From contig NC_047029.1 of NCBI RefSeq assembly GCF_902652985.1, positions 9,548,001 to 9,612,000 on the forward strand: a stretch of 64,000 nucleotides of DNA. The letters are read 5' to 3'. The notes below the pieces were generated by a model. That model was not told the origin of the DNA. It worked only from the letters and a program-made list of their open reading frames with translations, and searched no databases. A program made the translations under genes and the position numbers. Numbering within the stretch: position 1 is the first letter of the stretch; every line of letters begins with the position of its first letter. This DNA comes from Pecten maximus. Taxonomy: Eukaryota. This document shows, piece by piece, positions 24,179 to 64,000 of this stretch.

Positions 24179-26477
24179 TCATTTAACAGTTGGAAAGAAA
24201 CGACCGTGAAAGGTTTCGGGAACTCGCGTTGGTAAGTCCGCTGTGTGAGAGGTTGTCATGGAAACGGCATCAATGATGGCAAGATAGCTCACATTCTTCT
24301 CACCATCCAGAACGGGCACCAACAAATAACCGTCATCTTCGTTAAGTTTAGAATGGTTATTGGCTGGGAATGGAATAAACCACATTTCCGCCGGGTAATG
24401 ATTGGGATAAAACCACATCCGATCTTTCCCATTGTCACAAAGATCTTTTTTAACCAGAGCAAAATGGCTATAATTGATATCGTCACACTTACTGACCAAA
24501 CCATACACGTAGCAGTAGTTCCGAGATCGGTAGTTCTCGTTGATTATCGGCATGTCAAACTTTGTTGCACAAGGATATTTAACAGATTCCGGAAATGGTT
24601 TCACACTTACCTGCGTTATGTTCAAATTAATCCCGTATCGTGTTAAAACCGGATGTGGATTTAGTTTGTTCCTTTCGCTACGATTTAACAATGTTTCCAG
24701 TTTTAAATCAAAGATGATTGAAGCGTCGAAGTATGTTGGTACGTCAATTACAATCTCCTTAGTCCACGTCTCGAAGGCGTTTATGTGATGCAAATAGAAT
24801 ACCGGTGGAACGTGAAACGTTCGGATGATTCCAGACTTGATCTCTATGACATATATTGTCATATTCCTTCGAGCGCCATTCCATTTGAAACTTTTTGAAA
24901 TAGATCCTGATGTCAGAAAAGATTTAATATCGAGAAATAGTGGCGGACTAAAAAATATCACGTAGTTTGGAGTAACTGAAAATGAATGCATGAACGAAAC
25001 TTCGTCTGGATCCACAGACCATTGCGCGACAACCTCCCGTTCAGTCGTCGATTTAATCCGGATAAGCGAAATCCTATGTTTAACTCCAGGAATAATAGCA
25101 AGACTGTATAAGTACGTAAAATGATGAGGCGTGCCGTATTCCGGAAGTGGATGAGCCGTCGACATAACATTCTTGAAGATGAAACTGTTTATACCGCCGG
25201 TAGAAGGGACTTCAGGATGCAGATTTCCAATCGTCCTAAGGGATACGGGGTCGATTTCATAGTTATCCCAAACATCATTCAATGTCACGAAGCTGCCTTG
25301 TTTATTTCCTTCGGAAGGAAAGCGGTAAATGTTCACATTCATGTTGTCCATTCCCCGCCATAACGCTAATAACATTAGGAGATGGTTAAATCGTGGCTCT
25401 GTAGATCCGAACAGCAAATATGGAGAAATGTCATTCTGTGAGATAGACTTCTTATAAAAGCTAGATTTGATGAATTTAGTAGAGAAAAGTACCGTACCGT
25501 TTCCTTTAAACTGCCAACTGTAGAGTTTTCCATACCCGTCAAACATGTGGCAAACACTCCGATTACCGACCTCGAACTGCGCAGGTCCATTTCTGATCTG
25601 TTTGAAAGAAAAAGCGGTTGTAAAATACTACAATCAATCTAATTAAAATCTAGATGGTCATTCTCAGTACGTTACATGAACATCTAACAACATCCCATAA
25701 GGGGTCACGTTGGGGTGACCTTTTGGATTAGCCAATCAGATGCCTACTTCCAGAATCTTTAAAGTGAATTTTATATGCACGAATATTAGCATGACTAGAG
25801 TGCATAGCTTGCATGATCTGTCGATTTGTTTCAAGTCATTTCGTCCCAGAAAGCATATAGTACATGTATATACATGCTGTACCGAAATGCTTTGCTTCAG
25901 ATGCATAATGTGACGAAATGGTTTGCTTCGATGCCATCGAAAAATTGACGATTCGCCCTGAAAGTGAAATGCACATAGCTCAAAGGTCATCAGAACGTGA
26001 CCCCTAATGGGATGTCGTTAGATGTTCATGTAACGTAGTGAGAAATACCATCGAGATCTTAATTAGATTGTACTGCAATATACAAACATTTAAAAAAAAA
26101 ATTGTCGGAAAGTAAGATGAAATGGCCATCATTAATACTTACTTTCGCTATTTATGAAACAATCTAGACTACTTATTCTAGAGAGTCATTAGGCATTGCT
26201 ATCAGTTTGTATTGTTTTACAGCCATACACTAAGAATTACCCTATGCTGTTGGATATATATAATTTTACTTACCAATATCCCGTTGATCCATCGAGGTAT
26301 CGGTTTGTCAAAGTGGATGGGGACATTCTCCAGTTCTTTTGTGTTAGTACGAAACATGTTCTCGAATCCCTTATCCTGTATCCCGTTCTCGTCAGTCCGA
26401 GTTCTGCGGAGGCATAAGTCTACACCAGTCCAGCATATTGTGGTGATTAGGAGAATGTAGAAAATAGATGGCGACAT
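24179..26477 (-). CDS. Carotenoid cleavage oxygenase (BCO-like, RPE65 family), copy B, intact; exons 26477-26274 and 25597-24179 (540 aa)
   Basis: In-frame splice WINGIL|IRNGPAQF...HMFDGYG, the DNMNVN motif, four His contexts (STAHP, FMHSF, YLHHINAFE, TFHG), EDDG.LL and a hydrophobic N-terminus. Confidence 0.93.
25635..26070. mobile_element. MITE in the intron of oxygenase copy B
   Basis: About 75-bp imperfect terminal inverted repeats: CAATCTAATTAA...ACGTTACATGAACATCTAAC.ACATCCCAT.AGGGGTCACGTT and its reverse complement at about 25995-26070. Confidence 0.85.
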
Positions 26478-38591: not shown

Positions 38592-41500
38592 TTATGCTTT
38601 GACGCAGGTAAAGTTGCAAGCCAAGGGACTTCCGATATGGTGTTTGTCCTTTACCAACCAGCCGGATTTGGTTAAAAATGCATCTTTGTTTTCGGTCCCC
38701 CAGCCAACACCGTAACCAGGGGAGCCATCTTTCGACAGACTTCGAGGAAGACAAGAAACTGAACTGATGGCGTAACCTACTGCTGCCACACTCGCATCAC
38801 CGACGTTTCCCTTATGGCTGCTATGGACATCGGGATCAGTGATGGATACAACACCGCCATCCTTCAAGACGCGCTTCACTTCTTTCATGACATTAGCTTG
38901 GTCCGGCAGATCGTGAAGAAGATCAAACATAATCACCCAATCAAATTTACCGTTCCAGTCGGCGGGCATGGAAGTCGCGTCTTCCTTTAAAAACTTCACG
39001 TTTTTGACGCCTTCAGATTTCGCGATGGCATTGGCTTTGGTTATTGCGATTTCGCTGTAGTCAACGCCGTATATGTCTGCGTCTGGGAAACGCTTACTTA
39101 ATGCTCTAGTCACACAACCTTCACCTGATCCTAAATCCAAGATGGTGGTCACTGTCTCTGAAATAATCAAATTATCTATGTGTAAAAATGATTGATGTTT
39201 TGTGTCCAAAGTGATTATTTACAAAATGTTTTATTGTTTACATAATTATTCAATAAGTATAGACCTAGCGTGCGATCGATTGAAGCATTAAACGTTTTAA
39301 ATCATCTCCTTAGACTATTTTGATTTTTCAGGGTTAGGGAATAGGCTGTCCATCCTTAACCAACCTTAAATTACAGCGGAAAACTGAAAAAGAATAATGC
39401 ATACAATGCGTGTATGAATCATTGTTTTTGAAAAATCATATTATACAATTTGATTTTAAATTTTTTATTTTAAATGTTGATTCACATATACCAAGATTAT
39501 GTTAGAAACAAAATTTGTGCATGAAAATAAGTCTGTCATATATATATGTTATAAGTTATATATGATACAGTGAGCAAATAATAATGAAAAAAAAACAGTA
39601 AACAAAAATATGACTACAGACACTGAGTCAGTTTCATTATTGTTAGCACGAGTAAGAATACATTTATTACTAAGGAGACAGTTTCATTAGTGTTAGCACG
39701 AGTAAGAATACATTATTACTAAGGAGACAGTTTCATTAGTGTTAGCACGAGTAAGAATACATTATTACTAACGAGACAGTTTCATTAGTGTTAGCACGAG
39801 TAAGAATACATTATTACTAACGAGGAAAAACTATACATTTGGCTATTAAGACAAGTGTACTTTATCTGTAGTGAACTCATACATACAGGGGCAATGTTTT
39901 TACGTGAAGTCAGAAATAAGTCAAGAATCGGTCATCCATTTCTTTGTCCAAGATTAGGTACCAAATGTGGTTGCAGGAAGTTGGACCATGACAAATAACT
40001 TTATGCTTTGGTGATATAACAGTTGAGGATTGCATGACAACCACAGGGCCATCCCTAGAAAACATTAGTCTTACTGATGATAAAACCTTACTTGTCAACT
40101 TTGCGGCGGGTGTAAAGAGCTGGTCTACCACCGCGCCTGTATCCGACATTCGTTGTTCGAAGACATCAAATGTTTCCGGAAGTTCATCAGCAAGGGTGTA
40201 CCCTAAAACACCCAATGGTTATAACATAACTAATAAACGCAGAAGTCATTACACAGCGCATTGGTTATTATCGGAATCTGACATAAAGTCTGAGATCAGA
40301 GGCAAAGAAAGTAGAATATAATGTAATAGAAAGAAGGGCATAATGTTATAGAAAGTAGAGTATAATGTAATAGAAAGTAAAGCATAATGTTATAGAAAGT
40401 AAAGTATAATGTAATAGAAAGTAAAGTATAATGTAATAGAAGTAGAGTATAATGTAATAGAAAGTAAAGTATAATGTAATAGAAAGTAAAGTATAATGTA
40501 ATAGAAGTAGAGCATAATGTTATAGAAAGTAGAGTATAATGTAATAGAAAGTAAAGTATAATGTAATAGAAAGTAAAGTATAATGTAATAGAAAGTAAAG
40601 TATAATGTAATAGAAAGTAAAGTATAATGTAATAGAAGTAGAGTATAATGTAATAGAAAGTAGAACATAATGTAATAGAAAGTAGAACATAATGTAATAG
40701 AAAGTAAAGTATAATGTAATAGAAGTAGAGTATAATGTAATAGAAAGTAAAGCATAATGTAATAGAAAGTAAAGTATAATGTAATAGAAGTAGAGTATAA
40801 TGTAATAGAAAGTAAAGTATAATGTAATAGAAAGTAAAGCATAATGTAATAGAAAGTAAAGTATAATGTAATAGAAGTAGAGTATAATGTAATAGAAAGT
40901 AAAGCATAATGTAATAGAAAGTAAAGTATAATGTAATAGAAGTAGAGTATAATGTAATAGAAAGTAAAGTATAATGTAATAGAAGTAGAGTATAATGTAA
41001 TAGAAAGTAAAGCATAATGTAATAGAAGTAGAGTATAATGTAATAGAAAGTAAAGTATAATGTAATAGAAAGTAAACTATAATGTAATAGAAGTAGAGTA
41101 TAATGTAATAGAAGTAGAGTATAATGTAATAGAAAGTAGAATATAATGTAATAGAAAGTAGAGCATAATGTAATAGAAAGTAAACTATAATGTAATAGAA
41201 GTAGAGTATAATGTAATAGAAAGTAAAGTATAATGTAATAGAAAGTAAAGTATAATGTAATAGAAAGTAGAGTATAATGTAATAGAAAGTAAAGTATAAT
41301 GTAATAGAAAGTAAAGCATAATGTAATAGAAGTAGAGCATAATGTAATAGAAAGTAAAGCATAATGTAATAGAAGTAGAGTATAATGTAATAGAAAGTAG
41401 AGCATAATGTAATAGAAAGTAAAGTATAATGTAATAGAAGTAGAGTATAATGTAATAGAAAGTAAAGTATAATGTAATAGAAAGTAAAGTATAATGTAAT

Positions 41501-51422: not shown

Positions 51423-54400
51423 TTAAGCTTTAACGCAAGTAAAGTTACAAGCCAAAGGACTTCCGATATGACGTTTGTCCTTCACCAGCCAACCAGAACT
51501 CTTCAAAAAAGCATCCTTATTTTCCGTTCCCCAGCCAATGCCGTAACCAGGGGCGCCGTCTATCGACAAACTACAGGGGAGGCAAATTACGGTACTGAGG
51601 GCGTATCCTACTCCTGCCACGTTCGGATCCCCTATGTTATCTCTATGGTTACTATGGACATCCGGATCAGTGATGGAAACAACCCCGTTGTCCTTCAGCA
51701 CACGATTCACCTCTTTCATGGCATTTACAGGATCTGATAGGTCGTGAAGTACATCATACATAACCACCCAGTCAAACTTGTGTGTCCAGTCAGCGGGCAA
51801 GGACGTGGCATTTTCTTTCAGAAACTTCACGTTTTTGATGCCTTGGGTATGAGCTATTTCAATGGCCTTGGTAATTGCCATATCGGTGTAGTCAACGCCG
51901 TATATGTCTGCACATGGAAAACGCCTGCTCAACGCTCTGGAAATGTTTCCTGCACCGGACCCTAGGTCAAGAATTGACGTCCTTGCCCCTAAAAATGAAT
52001 GACATTAATATTTCACACCGTTTCGAGCTTAAAGATTCCTTTATTTCAGTATCCTATCAAACAAATTATCCATACATCAGTTATTTTGACAGCCATGTTA
52101 TCTAACGGATGAGTGCCTTCAGCGTACTACAAGACCGTCTAGTGGCAACATTCATTTCTGAATTTAATGTCGTGTAATCAGGATTGCGTGCATAGGTCGG
52201 GAAGAGATTAATATTTCACATATTCTGACATCATATAAACCTACGATAGAAGTTGATTTGGGAAGGGAGAGGGGGAGGGGGTGATATTTACTAAATGTAA
52301 TATGTTTAGGAGGAAAATCGTGCCCTTTAGATTAAAAAGAAAGATTTCATATTATGGTAACCAAATACTCGTTTGGAGTAGCAGTGTGATCAAACTTTAC
52401 CCGTGAATTTTGTCGCTGGCACCAGGAGCTGTTCCACTACCATGTCAGGATCGGCAACTCTTTCTTCAGTGACATCAACTACTTCTGGGAGCATATCACC
52501 AAATTCATAACCTAGAGAATGTGATCCATAAATACCAGTATAATATTGACTTAACAGTTATACTTTTCATCTGTCATCGAAGTCGTAGGAGTGTTTGAAA
52601 GCTGCATGGTGTATTGTATATTGATATTTCTATTTTTACTCAATTTGGGCTCCATTAACCTACCAAATTTAATGTTTCTTTTGACTATGATTTTGACAAG
52701 ATTAACATCAATCTACGCGTATGAAAAAAGCCGCCCAATTACCCGATCCCGGAAGAATATAAGTTTGTAAGAGAAATGGTCTTTCTTATATCACTATCAT
52801 AATATATATTCAGATTCTTAGTATTTCAATGAGAATTTCAGCAAAATAAGAATCCCTTAATCCCCCAAGGAGTTGATTGGGAACTCGTGTCAAGAGAGCT
52901 TCCGTTAGAAACTACACAAGGAACTGTTAAATCGATCCAAAAGAACTGTCAGTTAACAACTTAACAGTCAATGAATTGAGCTTCGTCTCTAATCAGTTGT
53001 AGAACTCGTATCAAGGTAACAACCAATTCTGTAACAATTTCGTAAAGATGTCCAATTTGAATTGAAGCGGAAGACATTTTTTAAATCCCTAGAAAAAAAT
53101 AACATTCCATTTAAATCATAACAAATGTGTTGCATAATCGAGTTTTGAGCCTGATTGTTCATTCTCTAATAATGGACTATTTTTAAACACAAACTTTAGA
53201 CTTGCAAAAGTTCTAGTAAATGTAGATTTGTATTCCTGCCAATCATAAGGTAAACCAACGTGCTCCATCATATTGAAAAATATCAGGATTTTTTTTGTCG
53301 AGTTCATAGGATGACGAATTGAGTTGCTCTTTGACAAATTCAACATGAACTTCCCAGTTCATTAAATGTGTCTCAAGATCAACTGAAGTCATCACCCCAT
53401 AATATCAACCAAAGCCAGATTCATCATCAAATGCTCTTTTAAAGATTTACAAATATCCTAGGTAATATCAACATATTTGAATTGAGCAGAGGTTCCCATC
53501 TTCCAAAATTAAAGGCGAAACCTGATAATATTACGAAATAAGTTAATATGTTTGTATTCACAAATGATCAATAGAATTAAGTTTCTTAGGGCTAGTACAT
53601 TCTTAACATGAAATGTCATCGGTATTAAATAAACTGTTCCCGACCACTCTTAATATATCTAAATAACTTCATATATAATAACTAACTCGAGGCCCGTCTT
53701 TCCTGAAACAGTTCTTGACTTTCCTAGTCATAGTACCCAACACAGGGAAGAAGAAAGCGGAATCAATACCACGAAGTCCTGGTTTAAGTTTCCCAGGGAT
53801 GAAGTAGCGGTCTGAGTCATCTAGTGAAACGATCCTTGTTGAGACCATACATCCCAGCCACTTCCGGACATACCTTCAACGGGAGACAATACTCATGATG
53901 TAATACTAGTAAGACCGAGAAATTTTCAGATATATCTATAAAGGGAGGTAATTAAACATGAAACACCACGATCTAGATACGAACCAAGCAACCATACAAA
54001 GGGAGATAATTACACGTAATACATCTGTTGTCAGATCATACAGCCCAATAATCATCGTATATACCTACAAAGGGAGATAGATACTTGCAATACATCGGAA
54101 GTCAGAAAATACATCCCAGTCAACCTGTGTAATTATCTCCCTTCGTATATACATACAAAGGGAGATAATTACACATAATACATCAGTAGTTAGATCATAC
54201 AGCCCAGTCTCTCTTGTATATTGCAAAGGAAGAGAGTTACACGAAATATATATCACTAGTAAGACCATGCAGCTAAGTCACTCTCGGTCATACCCTTGAA
54301 AACCCTATTGAGGTAGGGTTGTCGACATCTGAAGGTCACAAGGCAGCGATAACAAATACTAAAACCGTTTCAGTGCTAACTGCTTTATATTCACAATAAG

Positions 54401-56047: not shown

Positions 56048-57552
56048 CTGAATAATTTCCGTAAAGCAAAACTGTATCAAACACTTGTCCAGGAAATCTC
56101 CACAAAACATTGCGTTTTCATCATCGGTTAAAGATCTGAACAATGTCATCCAAAATTGACATGTTTGTTTCCTCAACATCCCCCATAACCACTCAATTCT
56201 TTTCCGTATAGAAAACTTTTATTTCCAGCAAGTTCGTCGTCATGGTTTTGTCTAAGAAATATTTGCATTTGTTCAACATGTCCGTTTTCGGTCCCCATAT
56301 CTGCACGTACTCTCTGTGGACACCCTTGTATTTGTTTTACTGCTTTTATGAAGTAGCTGGCTATAACTTTTGGATCGTTATTTGTCTTGTAGGCCTCCAT
56401 CCAAATAATTTTGCGTGAGAAACCATCTATGCAACCATGAATTGAAATGCCGTAAGGTTTAAGTTTGTCATAACCGTCTATATGCCAGACGTAGTTAGGA
56501 CCTTTGCTGAAGTATGTCCGTCGTCGTAGCCTCCGTCTTTTCCTAGCAACTATCCCAGTACTATCCAATACGTGTAAAAGTGCCAATACCGTATCTCTTG
56601 GTATATTGAACCCATGTTGTAAACATTTCTGATTCATCCATCTGTATCCATGGTGAAAATTCGATGCCATAACAAATAGTGCAACGTCCAATATGTCCGA
56701 GTGGTTTTTCCTTCTCGACAAATGTTGCTGTCGTAAGATCCTTTTCAATGTCGATCTACTAATAACACAGCCAGACGAAATCGCCAATGACGACAATATT
56801 TCATCGTTACTGAATCCCAGGTAAAAGCAACATTTCACAATGTCGGTAACAACTGCCATTCCGTAGTGTTGTATTACATAAGCTCCGGTTTCATGATGGA
56901 GCACACTGTTACATGTAATGCAAGACACTTTAATATATGTATAAACGAGAAATAATCTCGTATATACGAGAAATAAACTCGTATATACGAGAAAGAAACT
57001 CGTATATACGAGAAATAATCTCGTTATTACGAGAAATAAACTCGTATATACGAGAAATAAACTCGTTATTACGAGAAATAAACTCGTATATACGAGAAAT
57101 AATCTCGTTATTACGAGAAAGAAACTCGTATATACGAGAAATAATCTCGTTATTACGAGAAATAATCTCGTATATACGAGAAATAAACTCGTATAAACGA
57201 GAAAGAAACTCGTATATACGAGAAATAATCTCGTTATTACGAGAAATAAACTCGTATATACGAGAAATAATCTCGTATATACGAGAAATAAACTCGTATA
57301 TACGAGAAAGAAACTCGTATATACGAGAAATAATCTCGTATATATGAGAAAGAATCTCGTATATACGAGAAACAATCTCGTATATACGAGAAATAATCTC
57401 GTAATTACGAGAAATAATCTCGTATATACGAGAAATAAACTCGTATATACGAGAAATAATCCCGTATATACGAGATTTTTTATTTATTTTTTAATGATAC
57501 CAACTAAGTTATTTTTTATATTGGTCCTATTCGGCTTCCGTAGGCTTCCGTA
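56048..57552 (-). mobile_element. Decayed integrase-type (IS3EU-like) DNA transposon; transposase pseudogene 56859-56048
   Basis: N-terminal HTH-like region followed by RRLRRRTYFSKGPNYVWHIDGYDKLKPYGISIHGCIDGFSRKI...RVRADMGTEN. A deletion/frameshift falls between SFLYGK and RIEWLWGMLRKQ. Putative terminus TACGGAAGCC (minus strand, ending at 57542 and duplicated to 57552); the other terminus was not found. Confidence 0.8.
56937..57476. repeat. 21-bp palindromic subterminal repeat array, about 26 copies
   Basis: Unit CTCGTATATACGAGAAATAA(A/T) with palindromic core CTCGTATATACGAG, lying between the putative terminus and the transposase start. Confidence 0.95.
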
Positions 57553-57889: not shown

Positions 57890-60800
57890 TCACAGAATGT
57901 ACGGTGCAAATTCAGTAGTTAAAAAGTGATATATCTGTTGCTGTAGACTCTTCATTTTAGCTGCTGTTGACAGAAGTTCCAGCGANNNNNNNNNNNNNNN
58001 NNNNNNNNNNNNNNNNNNNNNNNNNNNNNNNNNNNNNNNNNNNNNNNNNNNNNNNNNNNNNNNNNNNNNNNNNNNNNNNNNNNNNNNNNNNNNNNNNNNN
58101 NNNNNNNNNNNNNNNNNNNNNNNNNNNNNNNNNNNNNNNNNNNNNNNNNNNNNNNNNNNNNNNNNNNNNNNNNNNNNNNNNNNNNNNNNNNNNNNNNNNN
58201 NNNNNNNNNNNNNNNNNNNNNNNNNNNNNNNNNNNNNNNNNNNNNNNNNNNNNNNNNNNNNNNNNNNNNNNNNNNNNNNNNNNNNNNNNNNNNNNNNNNN
58301 NNNNNNNNNNNNNNNNNNNNNNNNNNNNNNNNNNNNNNNNNNNNNNNNNNNNNNNNNNNNNNNNNNNNNNNNNNNNNNNNNNNNNNNNNNNNNNNNNNNN
58401 NNNNNNNNNNNNNNNNNNNNNNNNNNNNNNNNNNNNNNNNNNNNNNNNNNNNNNNNNNNNNNNNNNNNNNNNNNNNNNNNNNNNNTTTTTATGGCAGCTC
58501 TGTGTACCAAACTTAAATGTTTGGACTTTGTCTTACAGACATCCGAAAACTTTAGGTTGTCCCCTTTTAATATTTCTGATAATACGTAGGAAGTTGCATT
58601 ATCAAAATTCTTTGTCGAACTATAAAAATGATCTTCAAAGTAGAATTTTGTCAAAAGAGACTGACCATTGTCGATATGAGACTTTCTGTATTGCATCCAG
58701 GGTCTCGATTCGATGTGATCAATTACATAGATATCTGCATGTGACACACCTAGGTAAATCAAGTCTATAGGTTTAGATGAACGAGGCCCGTTTAACGCCA
58801 TGCCGCTTTCTATCAGGAACCGTACAGCCACAAAGTTTCCTCCCATGATTGCGTGATGGAGTATATTGTAACCATCTCTGTCGTAACATGTATCCCAAAA
58901 CGAAATAGGTTTTCGATTTAAAACGTTTACAAATTCGCCGCCATAAGCCCAATAAATCCAGAATTGGTTGTTTTCATTTCTTATTGTTCGATGCAAAAGA
59001 CTTTCTTCAAAGGGTTTGTTACAATAGTCCGAGGTGAATTGTGATAATAAATTCATCATTCCTATTGAAGGTTGTTTAGCGGAAAAGAACGCGGCAAGTA
59101 AATGTTTATCAACAGGTACAATCAAAGGTCTCGGCTGGAACATAATAATAGAATAAAGGATGAACGTATTACCTTTCATGACCGCCAGTCTGTGGTACTT
59201 AGGGTAGTCTACTGTTTGTTGCAGTTCCGGATGTTGGCCTATTAATTGAAATATCCTGAATACGACAATTTCTTCCTTGGATACTATTTCATCATACTCA
59301 ATATTTTGTTGTTTGTTAAATAGATCTACAAGTGAACAGTTTAAACACAACCTGTATTCATTCTGGTGTACTAAATTGTCAAATGCAACATCTACAACAG
59401 TTTTATTGATTTGATTTGGTTCTAACAAAAGTGATGTATTGGACCTGAAAACAAAATACCATATGCTCTGATGATTGCCAATTTCAACAGCATAATGTAA
59501 ATAATTGCTTGAGTTGGTATCTTTTGTTGAAGTTTTTAGTTCAGATTCCGACGTTAGCATATGTATCATGGAGTTTACATCCTTTGTGTACTTTGAACCT
59601 AGAGCTAAGTAATGAAACAATCCTCGACCTTCATTGTCTACCAGTTCTCTACTCGTTTTAGCGTAGTGAGGCTCTAGAGCTACATATGACATAATGGCAT
59701 TACACAGAACAGCAGAGTGGATCGGTAAAGACCCATTCGTCGCAGCTATGTATATATTTACTTTCCCGAAGATGATCATATAATGCATCATTTTCCATTC
59801 GTTGTTACAAGCAGCATAGTGTAATGGCGTATTACCAGACATGTCTTTCAACGTCCAGTTAAAAGACTTGCCACGATAATGAAGATGTTTGAATATTTCT
59901 TTCCTGCCACTCATAGCGAGGATGTGTTCAAAACCAGCTCCCAGTGGGCACATGTCATTGATTAAACTTGTTTGCTCGTTGTAATTGAAAATTTGAAATG
60001 ACATTCTAACCGTTGAATTATGTACATGTTCACATTTCTCATTAAAATTTCCACCATTTTCTACAATAATGTCAAGGATTTCAGATTGGTTATATTTAAT
60101 TGCCGTAAGAAGTGGAGTCCTTCCTCCATACTCCCGACAACTGATGGCGTTAGTGGTCTGCGATAGAAGATGGAAAACGATGTCTTTGTAACCTCTTTGG
60201 ATGGCAATTTCTAATGCGGTTGTACATTTGATTAACCTTTCATCATCATTTAGAACAAATGTTACATTTTCTAACTCGGCATATTGCAATAACAATAATC
60301 GGTTACATTCAACATTTTCACCTATGTTGTAACAAGGGTGCCATTGCATTCTTTTTGTGTTATTAGTGACCCAGTAAATTTTGTCTCCACATGGAATACA
60401 AGTGTCCTTAACGCCATGCTGTAACAACGACAAAACAGATCTCAAGTGGCCATTCTTTGATGCTAAATATAGGGAATTCTGGTCGGCTAACGTACTATTT
60501 ATTTCTAGGAATTGATTCAAAATGTCTGTGTGACCATGTTCTGAAGCTAGGTGTACAGCGTTAAGGTTTAAGCCGTTTTTCAAATAGAGCAATGTTTGAT
60601 TTTTAGACAACAGAAGATCAACTACGTTTAAATGTCCGTTTTGAGAAGCAATATCTAGTAAACCATAACCCCACAAAGTTGTGTATTTGCAGTGCCTGAC
60701 CGCATCCTCCAACCCTCCTTTGTTTGGAGGACTCTGTACTCTAAAGAAATAGTCTCCCCCTTCTTCTATCAGCGCTCTAAGTGTTTCAGAATGTCCAAAA

Positions 60801-63800
60801 GCCGCCGCCAGAAATGTAGCTGTAACATTTGCGGATGTAACATTATTGATGTGTTCTTTTCCGAGAACTTTGATAAGTAACTTGGTACCCAAAAATGAAT
60901 TTTTGGTTCGTGCCATTTGATAAAGATGATTGCCAGAGGAAAAGTTCGTTTCCAAAATATGTCTGGTATGTTGGAATGAATGTAGAAGTACCAGATCGTT
61001 TGACTCTGCTACATGGATAAACATATCTAGTATATCAGTACTACTGATGTTATATTTACGGAGAAGGTAACTCGCAAACAGTTTGTGACCGTTGGCCTTT
61101 GAGATATAATATTTATAATAGCTGGAGGCGTTATTACTAAGGTGATCGCAGATTCCTTTGTGATATATACTAATGTACGTGTTTTTGCTTTCCACAAAAT
61201 GAGAAATTTGGTTTCCGAGAAGACTTCGAAGATCATATGGATCCTTTGTAACATTTAGAATAGCTTCCAATTCCTCAAGTGGCAATCGTTTATACGATGT
61301 GCATAGCACCTCAAAAACCTTCCTCGCGAGATTGTACAATGGCGGGTTATCACCAAATACGCGGTCCAAATTTGTATGGTATAATTCATTAAGAGACTGT
61401 GGGATATCAGTAAATTTGCTATGCGGAGAACCTATCCAAAATTTAACTGCGAGGTCTACATATAAAAAATTGGATCCACTTACCCTCAAAATGCGTTTAG
61501 TTACTTCCTTGATATCAGTGTGTGTGCCAAACAAACGTGAAAATGTAGAAGTGTGTGTAAATAGATGGTGAGCGAGGAAAGTAGAGATGTCGTTTTGGTT
61601 CTGGACATTTTCCAGCGTTTCATGAAATCTTTTCATTCCAGAAAACCTGTCAGTCACCATGTTAACGTCTCTAGCTGTTATGAAGAACTTAAGCCACCAC
61701 GGCATGCTGCTGATCCGTTTAGACAAGACATCAAGAAGAGATATAGCAATGGCGGCGGAATCTCCACACTCATCTATAGCGTCAATAATAACATACCGTT
61801 CCTCATCGAATGTAAGACCGCTTAAAGGATGAATGATTGAGGCGTCAATACAACCAACAGGGTCCTCCGAACACTTACTGGTTTGTAAAAAGCTCATCGC
61901 GAGTTTATCAGTCAAAATAGCATTTCCTGCTTCTGGCAAATTACTTATTAACATGCCGGCGAGGTTTTTAATGAAATATTCAGGTCTTTGAGTACTGATC
62001 ACGTCAAATTTGCAAATATGGTATGACAATATAAACTTCCGTAATCCGTTACTTTCCGAACGTTCAGCGCTACAAAGCAGGTGTGATACTAATGTAGATT
62101 TACCATAACCCATTTCTGCTGTCAACATGACGCCTCTGGATTGTGTACCCATTAAAGACGTTTGGATCTTTTGGATAAGCCACTTCCGGCCCAAAAGGAG
62201 AGGACTGTTCTTCAGATAGCCGTCGAAGATATAGTCCGGTTCCCATGGACAGGGTTCAGAATATGTCAGTGATAGACAATCTGAAATACCAAATAAAATT
62301 ATCATTAAATCTGAAAATATATGAATTTATACAATGGCAGGTTATATTATACTAAAATAATTAATAATATATATATATATATATGTTAATATATTTTGCT
62401 CACGTTTTTGGATTTTGATCCTAGATTATTTGGATTAAACAACAGGTCCATAGGCCTTAACGGTCATTTGAGTTCTGCAGTTAGATTTCTCCACACCATG
62501 TCAAATAAATGATTGATTCTAAAAAGTTATTAATTACCATTTATAATATCTAGTAGAGAGATTTATGACTTAATGCTATACTAGGGCCTAAGCAAGGACA
62601 CGTCAAAAATTTAGCAATTCTGACACATTAGGGCCACACTCTTTAGCCCATGATGATTGGCTTTGGTCAACTGTTCATAACATTTGACTATTTCCACAAA
62701 GGACGAATGTAATGTAATGTAATAAATAAATAAATAAATAAAAAATCTATTCCATTCGTCAGACTCCGAGGATGGGACTATAATAAATAATATATAGTGG
62801 GACCATATTGGAGTACCTTTTTTTGCCAAATATCATCAAAATTGGTGTTCAGGGATTTTTTGTCAAGTGAGACTTTGCTTTATCGGTTCAATCCTTTGGC
62901 TTTTGGTTTTTGGATTTCGAGGAAATGTCATGAAAATAAGAGTGAACTGTATGCTGCAGGTTTTCATTTTCCATATCTTCAACAAATGGCATGGATAAGA
63001 GGACAATGTCACACTGACTTAACAACGAGACACTAGAAATAGGCTTTATCCTTTAAGATTCATCAACATAATTTCGGAAATTATTAGAACATTAGCACAA
63101 ATTTGATATTTGACCTTGAGGTCAAGGTCACTGTGGCCTAACGGCAATGCACTGCACAGTGACTTTAGCTGATGCAAGTCTTCTCTAAATTACACTATTA
63201 TATCTTCAACAGATTAGCACTAATGGCCCGGACAAAGCATTATTATTATCATTATTAGAAGTACTGATACAATATGTTTCCCTTCATTCGAAGGGGAGAA
63301 ATCATAATTACGTTGACACAAAAAAGTTTTCAATATCGATGCGATCTTCTCTTTTACCTTTTTCTTTTAATAATCTTTTGTCAGTTGTGTCATTCCAGAG
63401 ACCGACAGTTGCAAGAATTATTACAAGTATGAATGTCAAAGACATGCCTATCCATCGTCTTGCTAGACAACTCTTCTTGTCTTCTGTATCAACGTTGTCT
63501 TCATACAAACATATTCTTATCTCACTAACGCTGTCATGTTGGTCCAGAAATGTCCTCTCTGCGACATTTACTGGATTGAGAACATTGACTAGGTGATGTC
63601 TGAAAGTTTTCTCCTCCTCTGTAGCAAGCCTTATGACACAATTTGATTTTAAACGTTTAAGTTGTAAAATAGCTGTTTTGCCAGATTCAGTTTTAGAGAT
63701 CTCCGGTAATTTGAGAAATGCAATGAGATCCTTGAAGGCTCTTTTCCTTTCAAACGCGTTCACTTGAAGCTGTCCATGAGCAAACAGGGCATTTCGAATA

Positions 63801-64000
63801 TTTCTTACGCGGTTAATGGTTAGACTTTGAATTGAATTGAATGTCTTACAGTTATGAATAACATGCAATGCAACAACAATGTCGTCAGTGTATGACGTTC
63901 TAGCCTCCCACCAATCTGGGGCGAACACCTTCACCATTTCATTGACATTTTGAGGCCATTCCGAAGAATTGATATCTTTCCATTTGATCTGCCTAGCTCG
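57890..64000 (-). CDS. Large STAND-type protein: CXorf38/DZIP3-like HEPN domain, TM helix, NACHT NTPase and ankyrin repeats; exons >64000-63358 and 62280-(gap at 58485-57986); 3' end uncertain
   Basis: Open frame from the window edge: QIKWKDINSSEWPQNVNEMVKVF...IHNCKTF...VRNIRNALFAH; TM segment WIGMSLTFILVIILATVGLW; in-frame splice G|AT; LLGRKWL, Walker A AEMGYGKST, Walker B YVIIDAIDEC; ankyrin motifs (AAAFGH, ASQNGH, GRTPLLTA, GNTPLHYAA, GYNILHHA). Confidence 0.85.
62438..63308 (-). mobile_element. HINE-like non-autonomous element(s) in the intron of the NACHT gene
   Basis: AACAACAGGTCCATAGGCC end, a TGACCTTGAGGTCAAGGTCA palindrome and a CCCTTC..GAAGGGG hairpin at the opposite end. Confidence 0.45.

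Follow-up and report, generated by a model that had tools for sequence, protein, structure and literature searches.

The 64,000-nucleotide stretch of the Pecten maximus genome analysed here (C15:9548001-9612000, hereafter the window) carries on its minus strand a gene of two coding exons, whose product joins a CXorf38-type HEPN domain, a single transmembrane (TM) helix, a NACHT module and a long ankyrin array. This architecture is real, expressed and family-wide. As a member of the signal transduction ATPases with numerous domains (STAND) that bears a CXorf38-type HEPN domain, the protein is neither a bona fide nucleotide-binding leucine-rich repeat receptor (NLR) nor an IRE1, and it probably represents a STAND immune receptor variant with inverted topology. 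The interpretation that we favour, and hold to be somewhat better than an even bet, is that of a type II receptor in which a predicted cytosolic HEPN RNase would be linked through the helix to a glycosylated, disulfide-bonded sensor in the lumen or outside the cell, and which would cluster on ligand binding. A preliminary description of this DNA had proposed a type II membrane receptor of this kind, a topology that gains support because co-selection of N-glycosylation sequons, covariation of cysteine pairs and a charge bias, all seen across the family, point towards it.

Exon 1 opens with an ATG at C15:9612267, 267 nt past the window end, in a part that encodes residues 1-89 with their Zn-ribbon-like cysteines, and has its 3' limit at 63358; exon 2 begins at 62280 and stays open as far as a run of N at 58485. 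The phases of the two exons agree and the spliced frame comprises 1568 stop-free codons up to the N run, which leaves the N-terminus outside the window and the C-terminus in the gap, as first described. In the neighbouring paralog, 3.4 kb separate the sequences that border the N run here, which makes the run a gap of nominal size or the window copy a truncated one. The splice, which the preliminary description had put forward for a check in RNA-seq data, was recovered: RNA contigs from 4/4 runs of a single study cross the 62280/63358 joint with 72-235 letters on their shorter side, and the two exons do not belong to separate transcripts. The gene stretch is present in 4 of the 24 RNA runs listed, and the same contigs also align across the corresponding joint of a paralog. 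NACHT and ankyrin repeats do share one exon, the Pfam matches to NPHP3_N (1e-15), HTH_TANC1 (1e-4), NACHT (0.011) and ankyrin all falling in exon 2.

One strongly hydrophobic segment, preceded by basic residues, had been singled out between the HEPN domain and the NACHT module from the start, and both features were found again. Kyte-Doolittle hydropathy over 19 residues (KD19) reaches 2.33 at residues 272-290, against 1.40 at the next best position of the whole protein, and the N-terminal side of the helix carries the higher net charge in 34/43 family members and the lower in 6/43. A hydrophobic helix just upstream of NACHT (KD19>=1.6 within 75 aa of the NACHT region) occurs in 43 of the 45 members with an N-terminus of at least 100 aa but in 0/30 of the outgroup, 76 family records without the N-terminus being left unscored; it is a plain segment of 19-20 residues, whose sequence drifts across the family while its hydrophobicity is kept. 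A second TM segment that would return NACHT to the cytosol is absent from the window protein and from 115/121 members, the other 6 having a downstream segment of KD>=1.8 that in 5 cases lies at the very end of the record. We strongly infer from these sequence features that the helix acts as a signal-anchor, sending the approximately 1,600-residue NACHT-ankyrin part into the endoplasmic reticulum (ER) for glycosylation and oxidation.

The distribution of the sequons (N-x-S/T) is consistent with such a fate. Behind the helix the window protein has exactly 20, in agreement with the count of about 20 in the preliminary description, where 12.0 are expected (P=0.013 in 5000 shuffles); 12 are of the NxT type against 4.8 expected (P=0.003), and the ankyrin array carries 16 of the 20. 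The first of them, NDT at residue 292, does stand immediately behind the helix as had been remarked but, being two residues from it where oligosaccharyl transfer requires a distance of at least 12-14 residues from the membrane, is probably too near for use. Homologues show an excess as well, with 1481 sequons in the family after the helix where 1009 are expected (1.47x; NxT 1.72) and 76 before it where 85 are expected (0.90x), compared with 20/34 and 48/67 in the outgroup (0.58-0.71) and 0.90-1.03 at offset controls; an excess is seen in 88/93 long family members versus 5/30 outgroup proteins. Within alignment columns, Ser or Thr at Asn+2 has an odds ratio of 1.57-1.61 at three redundancy cut-offs, the strictest of which left 54 sequences under 45% identity, and the controls gave 0.87-0.96 at other Asn offsets and 0.84-1.11 at Asp/Gln+2. 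The sequon share of Asn is ~0.20 in loops and edges versus 0.06-0.11 in helix cores. The ankyrin consensus was considered as the source of the sequons and was ruled out, because ankyrin units of other open reading frames (ORFs) in the same genome have a ratio of 0.66 (12/18), against 1.69 in those of the family, and because the non-ankyrin parts of the family reach 1.42 (423/297). For human membrane proteins, section 5 of PMC5562741 reports a pattern of high luminal and neutral cytosolic sequon frequency, and soluble ER proteins are given there as showing no excess.

The many Cys residues noted at the outset do not amount to evidence, as the content of the window protein is ordinary (1.96% vs 2.48% in 24 other ankyrin ORFs of the genome); what is unusual is their conservation and their paired gain and loss. 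About 20 Cys columns behind the helix are enriched in the family, among them three family-specific ones of NACHT, C373 (107/118), C447 (120/121) and C475 (121/121), compared with 1, 0 and 0 of 36 outgroup proteins. The pairs 883/906, 934/989, 1128/1163 and 1285/1295 co-vary with phi of 0.96, 0.95, 0.71 and 0.61 and share at least 2, 3, 3 and 8 changes on the tree, respectively, whereas 5/6 mismatched pairs share 0; the co-varying pairs of the ankyrin array are 934/989, 1128/1163, 931/1018, 1053/1081 and 1390/1435. Because gain or loss of both partners of such a pair coincides 2 to 8 times on the tree, as would be expected of disulfides, we predict that they are bonded. Given the sequon excess after the helix, the paired gain and loss of Cys and the positive charge on the N side, it is very likely that the NACHT-ankyrin part is luminal or extracellular.

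On the other side of the helix, the N-terminal domain matches the DUF4559/CXorf38 profile of Pfam (E 4e-9 for the part inside the window, 2e-18 for P0002), and passages of PMC3710099 place CXorf38 in the HEPN superfamily and list fusions to NACHT and ankyrin, so that the HEPN-type, CXorf38-like domain of the preliminary description is borne out. Its R-x5-H motif (RNALFAH) corresponds to R158-N159-x4-H164, of which the three named residues are invariant in 14/14 aligned N-termini, as are C60, C71 and C74 of the Zn-ribbon-like insert, and a regular expression finds the R-N-x-H motif in 35/41 N-termini. The spacing of D129 resembles that of D134 in human CXorf38, for which a 2026 preprint on TAMALE stresses residues matching R158, N159, H164 and D129. 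As for the modelling suggested earlier, AlphaFold2 (AF2) predicts residues 1-260 with confidence (pLDDT 87), although the fold search on its own gave a weak result that is discussed below. A homodimer of residues 1-215 is predicted with a score of 0.41, against 0.01 for the best control, with contacts that agree to at least 97% and pLDDT of at least 86; the mark for this score is reached by 21/30 solved pairs and 0/23 single chains (17/29 and 0/30 for eukaryotes). The predicted interface includes residues 128-130 and 162-167, and thus D129 and H164.

By its motifs and its modelled fold of nucleotide-binding domain, helical domain 1 and winged helix, the protein belongs to the STAND/NACHT NTPases. 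In addition to the Walker motifs, the sensor-1 residue R507 is kept in 117/119 family members and the winged-helix residue H677 in 110/113. For residues 305-1504, an AF2 model based on 55 family sequences (pLDDT 86) matches the STAND folds of 2fna (Z 20.1, root-mean-square deviation (rmsd) 4.2, 318 aligned), of the wheat resistosome 9h2l (Z 18.5, rmsd 4.8, 347 aligned), of 8bob (Z 15.7) and of 8dgc (Z 14.4), while a sequence search of the PDB with the NACHT region returned 0 matches at E<=1. In the window protein and the family proteins scanned, Pfam found no leucine-rich repeats (LRRs), ankyrins being present instead, and no kinase family.

When 1.84 billion representative sequences were searched with the NACHT region, 122 matches reached E<=1e-30, the best 150 being listed, and a tree of those 157 of the 167 collected proteins whose NACHT region spans 250 aa or more places 121 sequences in one clade with support 1.0 and 36 outside it. 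Named members come from bivalves (Argopecten, Ylistrum, Pecten, Pinctada, Mytilus, Ostrea, Saccostrea, Mya, Mercenaria, Ruditapes, Sinanodonta) and anthozoans (Nematostella, Paramuricea), and the closest named proteins of the window gene are from scallops; the reach of the family into anthozoans goes beyond what the preliminary description proposed. Its architecture has been hidden because databases label the members TANC2-like, ANKRD50-like or uncharacterised. In one subclade, including Paramuricea, a DZIP3-type HEPN takes the place of the CXorf38-type while the TM is kept, and HEPN, TM and NACHT lie within single database ORFs; the same join of HEPN-TM to NACHT is found in named models from many genera. 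TIR or WD40 domains are present in the six outgroup proteins that were scanned. When longer proteins sharing the N-terminus of the window gene were sought, 5 scallop proteins were the sole result, and a soluble DUF4559-NACHT-ankyrin control did not emerge.

Eight single-exon ORFs of the collection (P0012, P0013, P0018, P0036, P0069, P0077, P0099, P0102) have their start directly ahead of the first conserved Cys, in sequence that is rich in pyrimidines and resembles an intron; this suggests a post-TM intron common to bivalve and anthozoan-containing clades. In the Mytilus protein P0007 the place of HEPN is taken by 3-4 hydrophobic helices, through either an exchange of the effector or an error in joining the gene model. 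As searches of PDB, Atlas and Pfam with these helices gave no match, leaving a possible likeness to STRA6 unconfirmed, and as its nearest relative P0030 has a HEPN-type start, P0007 was not used as evidence.

The Pecten genome holds 7 copies of the gene, in two tandem clusters plus one contig: three on C15 (L008, L011, L013), three on C13 and one that is cut by a contig end. Three other copies are complete (1882, 1879 and 1918 aa), and a further two are broken. Mosaic structure is seen in the window copy, which is identical to C15b over 215 HEPN codons and near C15c at residues 1181-1330 (synonymous distance pS 0.04 vs 0.29), a pattern that suggests gene conversion or recombination. Residues 1181-1330 and the C-terminus are the variable regions among the paralogs, and ratios of non-synonymous to synonymous change (dN/dS) of mostly 0.15-0.5 indicate purifying selection.

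Ligand-triggered oligomerisation is typical of STAND receptors, and HEPN dimerisation leads to RNA cleavage in IRE1 and RNase L. Drawing on this biology, we propose that the STAND module would take up nucleotide inside the ER, a compartment in which ATPases can operate, as torsins show, and would stay closed until a ligand binds the variable ankyrin or C-terminal regions. ADP/ATP exchange and oligomerisation might then draw the helices and the cytosolic HEPN domains into a dimer with a composite R-N-x-H site, which could cut host or viral RNA and lead to cell arrest or death. As to the trigger, a signal of pathogens or damage that arises at the cell surface or along the secretory pathway would be the likeliest, an immune role being suggested by the tandem expansion, the broken copies and the effector swapping. 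In a broader version, to which we give an even chance, the family would constitute a new class of animal immune receptors in bivalves and anthozoans, with an extracytosolic STAND NTPase that assembles on the membrane's outer face into a ring resembling a resistosome, signals via a single helix to interchangeable cytosolic HEPN RNases and possibly takes extracellular ATP as a co-signal.

Several observations weigh against the proposed clustering immune receptor, and they are set out here together with the competing explanations. The main rival with regard to the trigger keeps topology and RNase but assumes a homeostatic cue, such that the protein would be a sensor of ER or secretory stress (luminal ATP/ADP, misfolded protein) causing an RNA decay similar to the regulated IRE1-dependent one. 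We consider this unlikely, although the ER lumen does support ATPases such as torsinA, C6orf70, a HEPN family with a TM, is predicted in PMC3710099 to act as an RNase in ER stress, and the 6 pairwise comparisons of the 4 intact copies revealed no region with dN/dS >1, and hence no positive selection. Immune families, by contrast, typically show what is seen here, namely copies multiplied in tandem, mosaicism among paralogs, broken copies and exchanged effectors. The 1.47-fold sequon excess of the family, set against its absence from soluble ER proteins in PMC5562741, is a weak hint of a post-ER location.

About as unlikely is a receptor of the same topology that does not cluster, whose ectodomain would govern the cleavage or release of HEPN, or whose HEPN would be a non-nuclease RNA-binding or adaptor module. 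The literature searched contained no CXorf38-type domain with demonstrated activity, the TAMALE preprint suggests that downstream helices autoinhibit CXorf38, and the linker/TM region is the least conserved section of exon 1. Fold searches with the HEPN model gave weak results: Foldseek returned no match at E<=0.001, and in a structure comparison HEPN proteins, including the C-terminal domain of Swt1 (4pqz; Z 5.1, rmsd 4.0, 122/136 aligned) as well as 2hsb, 8vz6 and 4rgp (Z 4.3-4.5), scored Z 4.2-5.1, tied with unrelated bundles. Moreover, just 1/7 eukaryotic pairs without an older relative pass the dimer mark, and the pass of the scallop domain may reflect a memory of solved HEPN dimers and does not amount to a demonstration of binding. 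Against a non-nuclease HEPN or an absence of clustering stand the conservation of R-N-x-H in the aligned N-termini, a symmetric dimer predicted around these very residues and the near-invariant oligomerisation motifs of NACHT.

Less probable still is an ordinary cytosolic HEPN-NACHT-ankyrin NLR-like protein whose two ends are both cytosolic and which a re-entrant helix or a hairpin would anchor in the membrane. Published membrane-bound NLR-like proteins, so far as the available parts of these papers go, keep NACHT in the cytosol or have multiple TMs; residues 293-645 of the window copy, the NACHT core, are devoid of sequons, as in the scallop copies; and in the Nematostella member two segments of moderate hydrophobicity (KD 1.65 and 1.53) could form a hairpin. 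Such a protein would leave unexplained the Asn+2-specific sequon excess behind the helix, the paired gain and loss of Cys and the charge asymmetry, and a plain helix of constant hydrophobicity and drifting sequence does not suit it. The topology that we propose is nonetheless deduced from hydropathy and statistics. The pooled P-values are overstated, because related sequences are not independent, and 24% of the family sequons fall in ten columns; that a few conserved sites make up the entire signal was ruled out, as the fraction without the top 10 columns is still 0.148 versus 0.097-0.107 at other offsets. Whole control ankyrin ORFs have a mild sequon excess of 1.22 (96/79; offsets 0.83-1.14), and the mismatched Cys pair 630/883 also shared 2 changes. 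The control value is driven by two of L032, L044 and L057 (C2), long ankyrin frames of a single exon with a hydrophobic segment at their end, which exceed the expected sequons in two cases (13/6.7, 12/7.3); we take them to be TRP-channel-like. Finally, a splice acceptor 10 nt 5' of the ATG implies a further upstream exon, which might code for a signal peptide and whose sequence the RNA contigs do not reveal. As regards a cleavable signal peptide, gene models from many genera begin at the HEPN domain, the first helix is mildly hydrophobic in 14/44 N-termini but belongs to HEPN, and no secreted member with a signal peptide only was seen among the family N-termini inspected. That two genes were wrongly joined can practically be dismissed, because the RNA junction unites both exons in all four runs, albeit of one study, and because the same join recurs in named models of many genera and within single ORFs of the DZIP3-type subclade, even if P0007 illustrates that odd N-termini occur among family gene models.

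Table 1. Parts of the HEPN-TM-NACHT-ankyrin gene and, below them, neighbouring features of the window (window positions).
Feature	Position	Strand	Evidence or remark
HEPN domain, CXorf38/DUF4559 type, residues 90-215, predicted cytosolic	63623..64000	-	Pfam PF15112 E 4e-9; AF2 pLDDT 87, pTM 0.87
D129 of HEPN	63881-63883	-	>=90% of 14 aligned N-termini
HEPN catalytic-type motif R158-N159-x4-H164	63776..63796	-	conserved in aligned N-termini
Single TM helix, residues 272-290, basic residues on N-terminal side	63398..63454	-	KD19 2.33
Intron, phase 1, GT-AG, 1077 nt, between HEPN+TM exon and NACHT-ankyrin exon	62281..63357	-	RNA joint, 4/4 runs
NACHT/STAND module (nucleotide-binding domain, helical domain, winged helix), residues 305-745, predicted luminal/extracellular	60956..62280	-	Pfam
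Walker A, residues 358-365	62096..62119	-	Lys364 in 117/117 aligned family members
Walker B, residues 468-475	61766..61789	-	D470 119/121, D473 120/121, E474 120/121
Ankyrin-repeat array with Cys-bounded loop insertions, residues ~750-1488	58727..60943	-	Pfam Ank_2 1e-35; AF2 mean pLDDT 86; ankyrin fold matches
500-N run entered by the reading frame	57986..58485	.	~315 C-terminal residues of complete paralogs not visible in window copy
Tandem array, 21-bp repeat, 25.6 copies	56939-57475		adjoins transposase-like frame
Integrase-core transposase-like frame, just downstream of the gene	56173-56930	-	Pfam rva_4 E 1e-20
Two paralogous exons	38592-39218, 51423-52004	-	presumably methyltransferase-like
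Two related long frames, the first divided over two reading frames	15213-16635, 24179-25627	-	presumed resemblance to carotenoid-oxygenase family
Multi-pass transporter-like exons with Ser/Thr/Asn-rich loop	11890-13589	+	presumed resemblance to major facilitator superfamily (MFS) transporters

STAND/NLR receptors are usually treated as cytosolic sensors, and the membrane-bound cases found in the literature keep the NTPase inside or are multi-pass. If the topology of the scallop protein is true, the NLR switch could be relocated to the secretory pathway and relay its signal through the membrane, combining NLR logic with an IRE1-like RNase output, and its confirmation would define a new receptor class. 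The family also provides, for farmed bivalves as well as anthozoans, a candidate with which the sensing of pathogens in the lumen or outside the cell can be tested directly, and a natural regulated system for asking whether RNase activity belongs to the CXorf38-type HEPN, which is uncharacterised in its human member.

A TM between HEPN and NACHT, or a luminal NACHT, is not described in the full-text literature searched, which did not cover subscription papers or the domain tables of PMC8260672 and PMC10236652 that could list such an architecture, and the supplement of PMC3710099 held no match to it. The nearest relatives in design are the CXorf38- and DZIP3-type HEPN-NACHT proteins of cnidarians, bivalves and amphioxus, some with ankyrins or LRRs, that share effector families, the effector-NACHT-repeat order and lineage-specific expansion with the present family (PMC3710099, PMC8260672, PMC9646362). 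In the relevant passages of these papers they are described as intracellular and a TM is unmentioned, whereas the present family has a TM between HEPN and NACHT and secretory-pathway signatures on the NACHT side. Other NACHT/STAND proteins of marine invertebrates do reside in membranes, namely AjNLRC4 of the sea cucumber (PMC8699970) and the TM-DED-TRADD-N receptors of Crassostrea virginica (PMC8195603), but excerpts of both papers state that the domain is inside the cell; the connexin-like NLRs of anthozoans have 3-5 N-terminal TMs and LRRs, compared with one TM and ankyrins in the scallop protein (PMC3879445, PMC5094078, bioRxiv 10.64898/2026.06.13.731801). None of these, as far as the consulted parts of the sources describe them, has a single TM between effector and NACHT.

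A bona fide NLR is marked by C-terminal LRRs, in whose place the scallop protein has ankyrins. TANC1/2 and ANKRD50 resemble it in their NPHP3_N-type NACHT, TANC1-like winged helix and ankyrin array, yet locus L028 of the same genome, which we take to be ANKRD50/TANC-like, is just 22% identical, and the present family forms a clade apart, with a TM, a HEPN and cysteines of its own. Torsins are P-loop NTPases that act in the ER lumen, with N-glycans and redox-sensitive folding, as is proposed for the present protein, but, from the portions of the torsin literature at hand, are of the AAA+ clade rather than STAND, with neither a repeat sensor nor a cytosolic effector. IRE1 acts across the ER membrane, and RNase L senses via ankyrins. 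In both, a sensor-driven dimer activates a HEPN-family RNase. Their KEN domain is a HEPN (PMC3710099). The scallop protein differs in that RNase L is soluble and in that, compared with IRE1, it would be type II rather than type I, lack a kinase and have as its switch a STAND NTPase on the luminal side.

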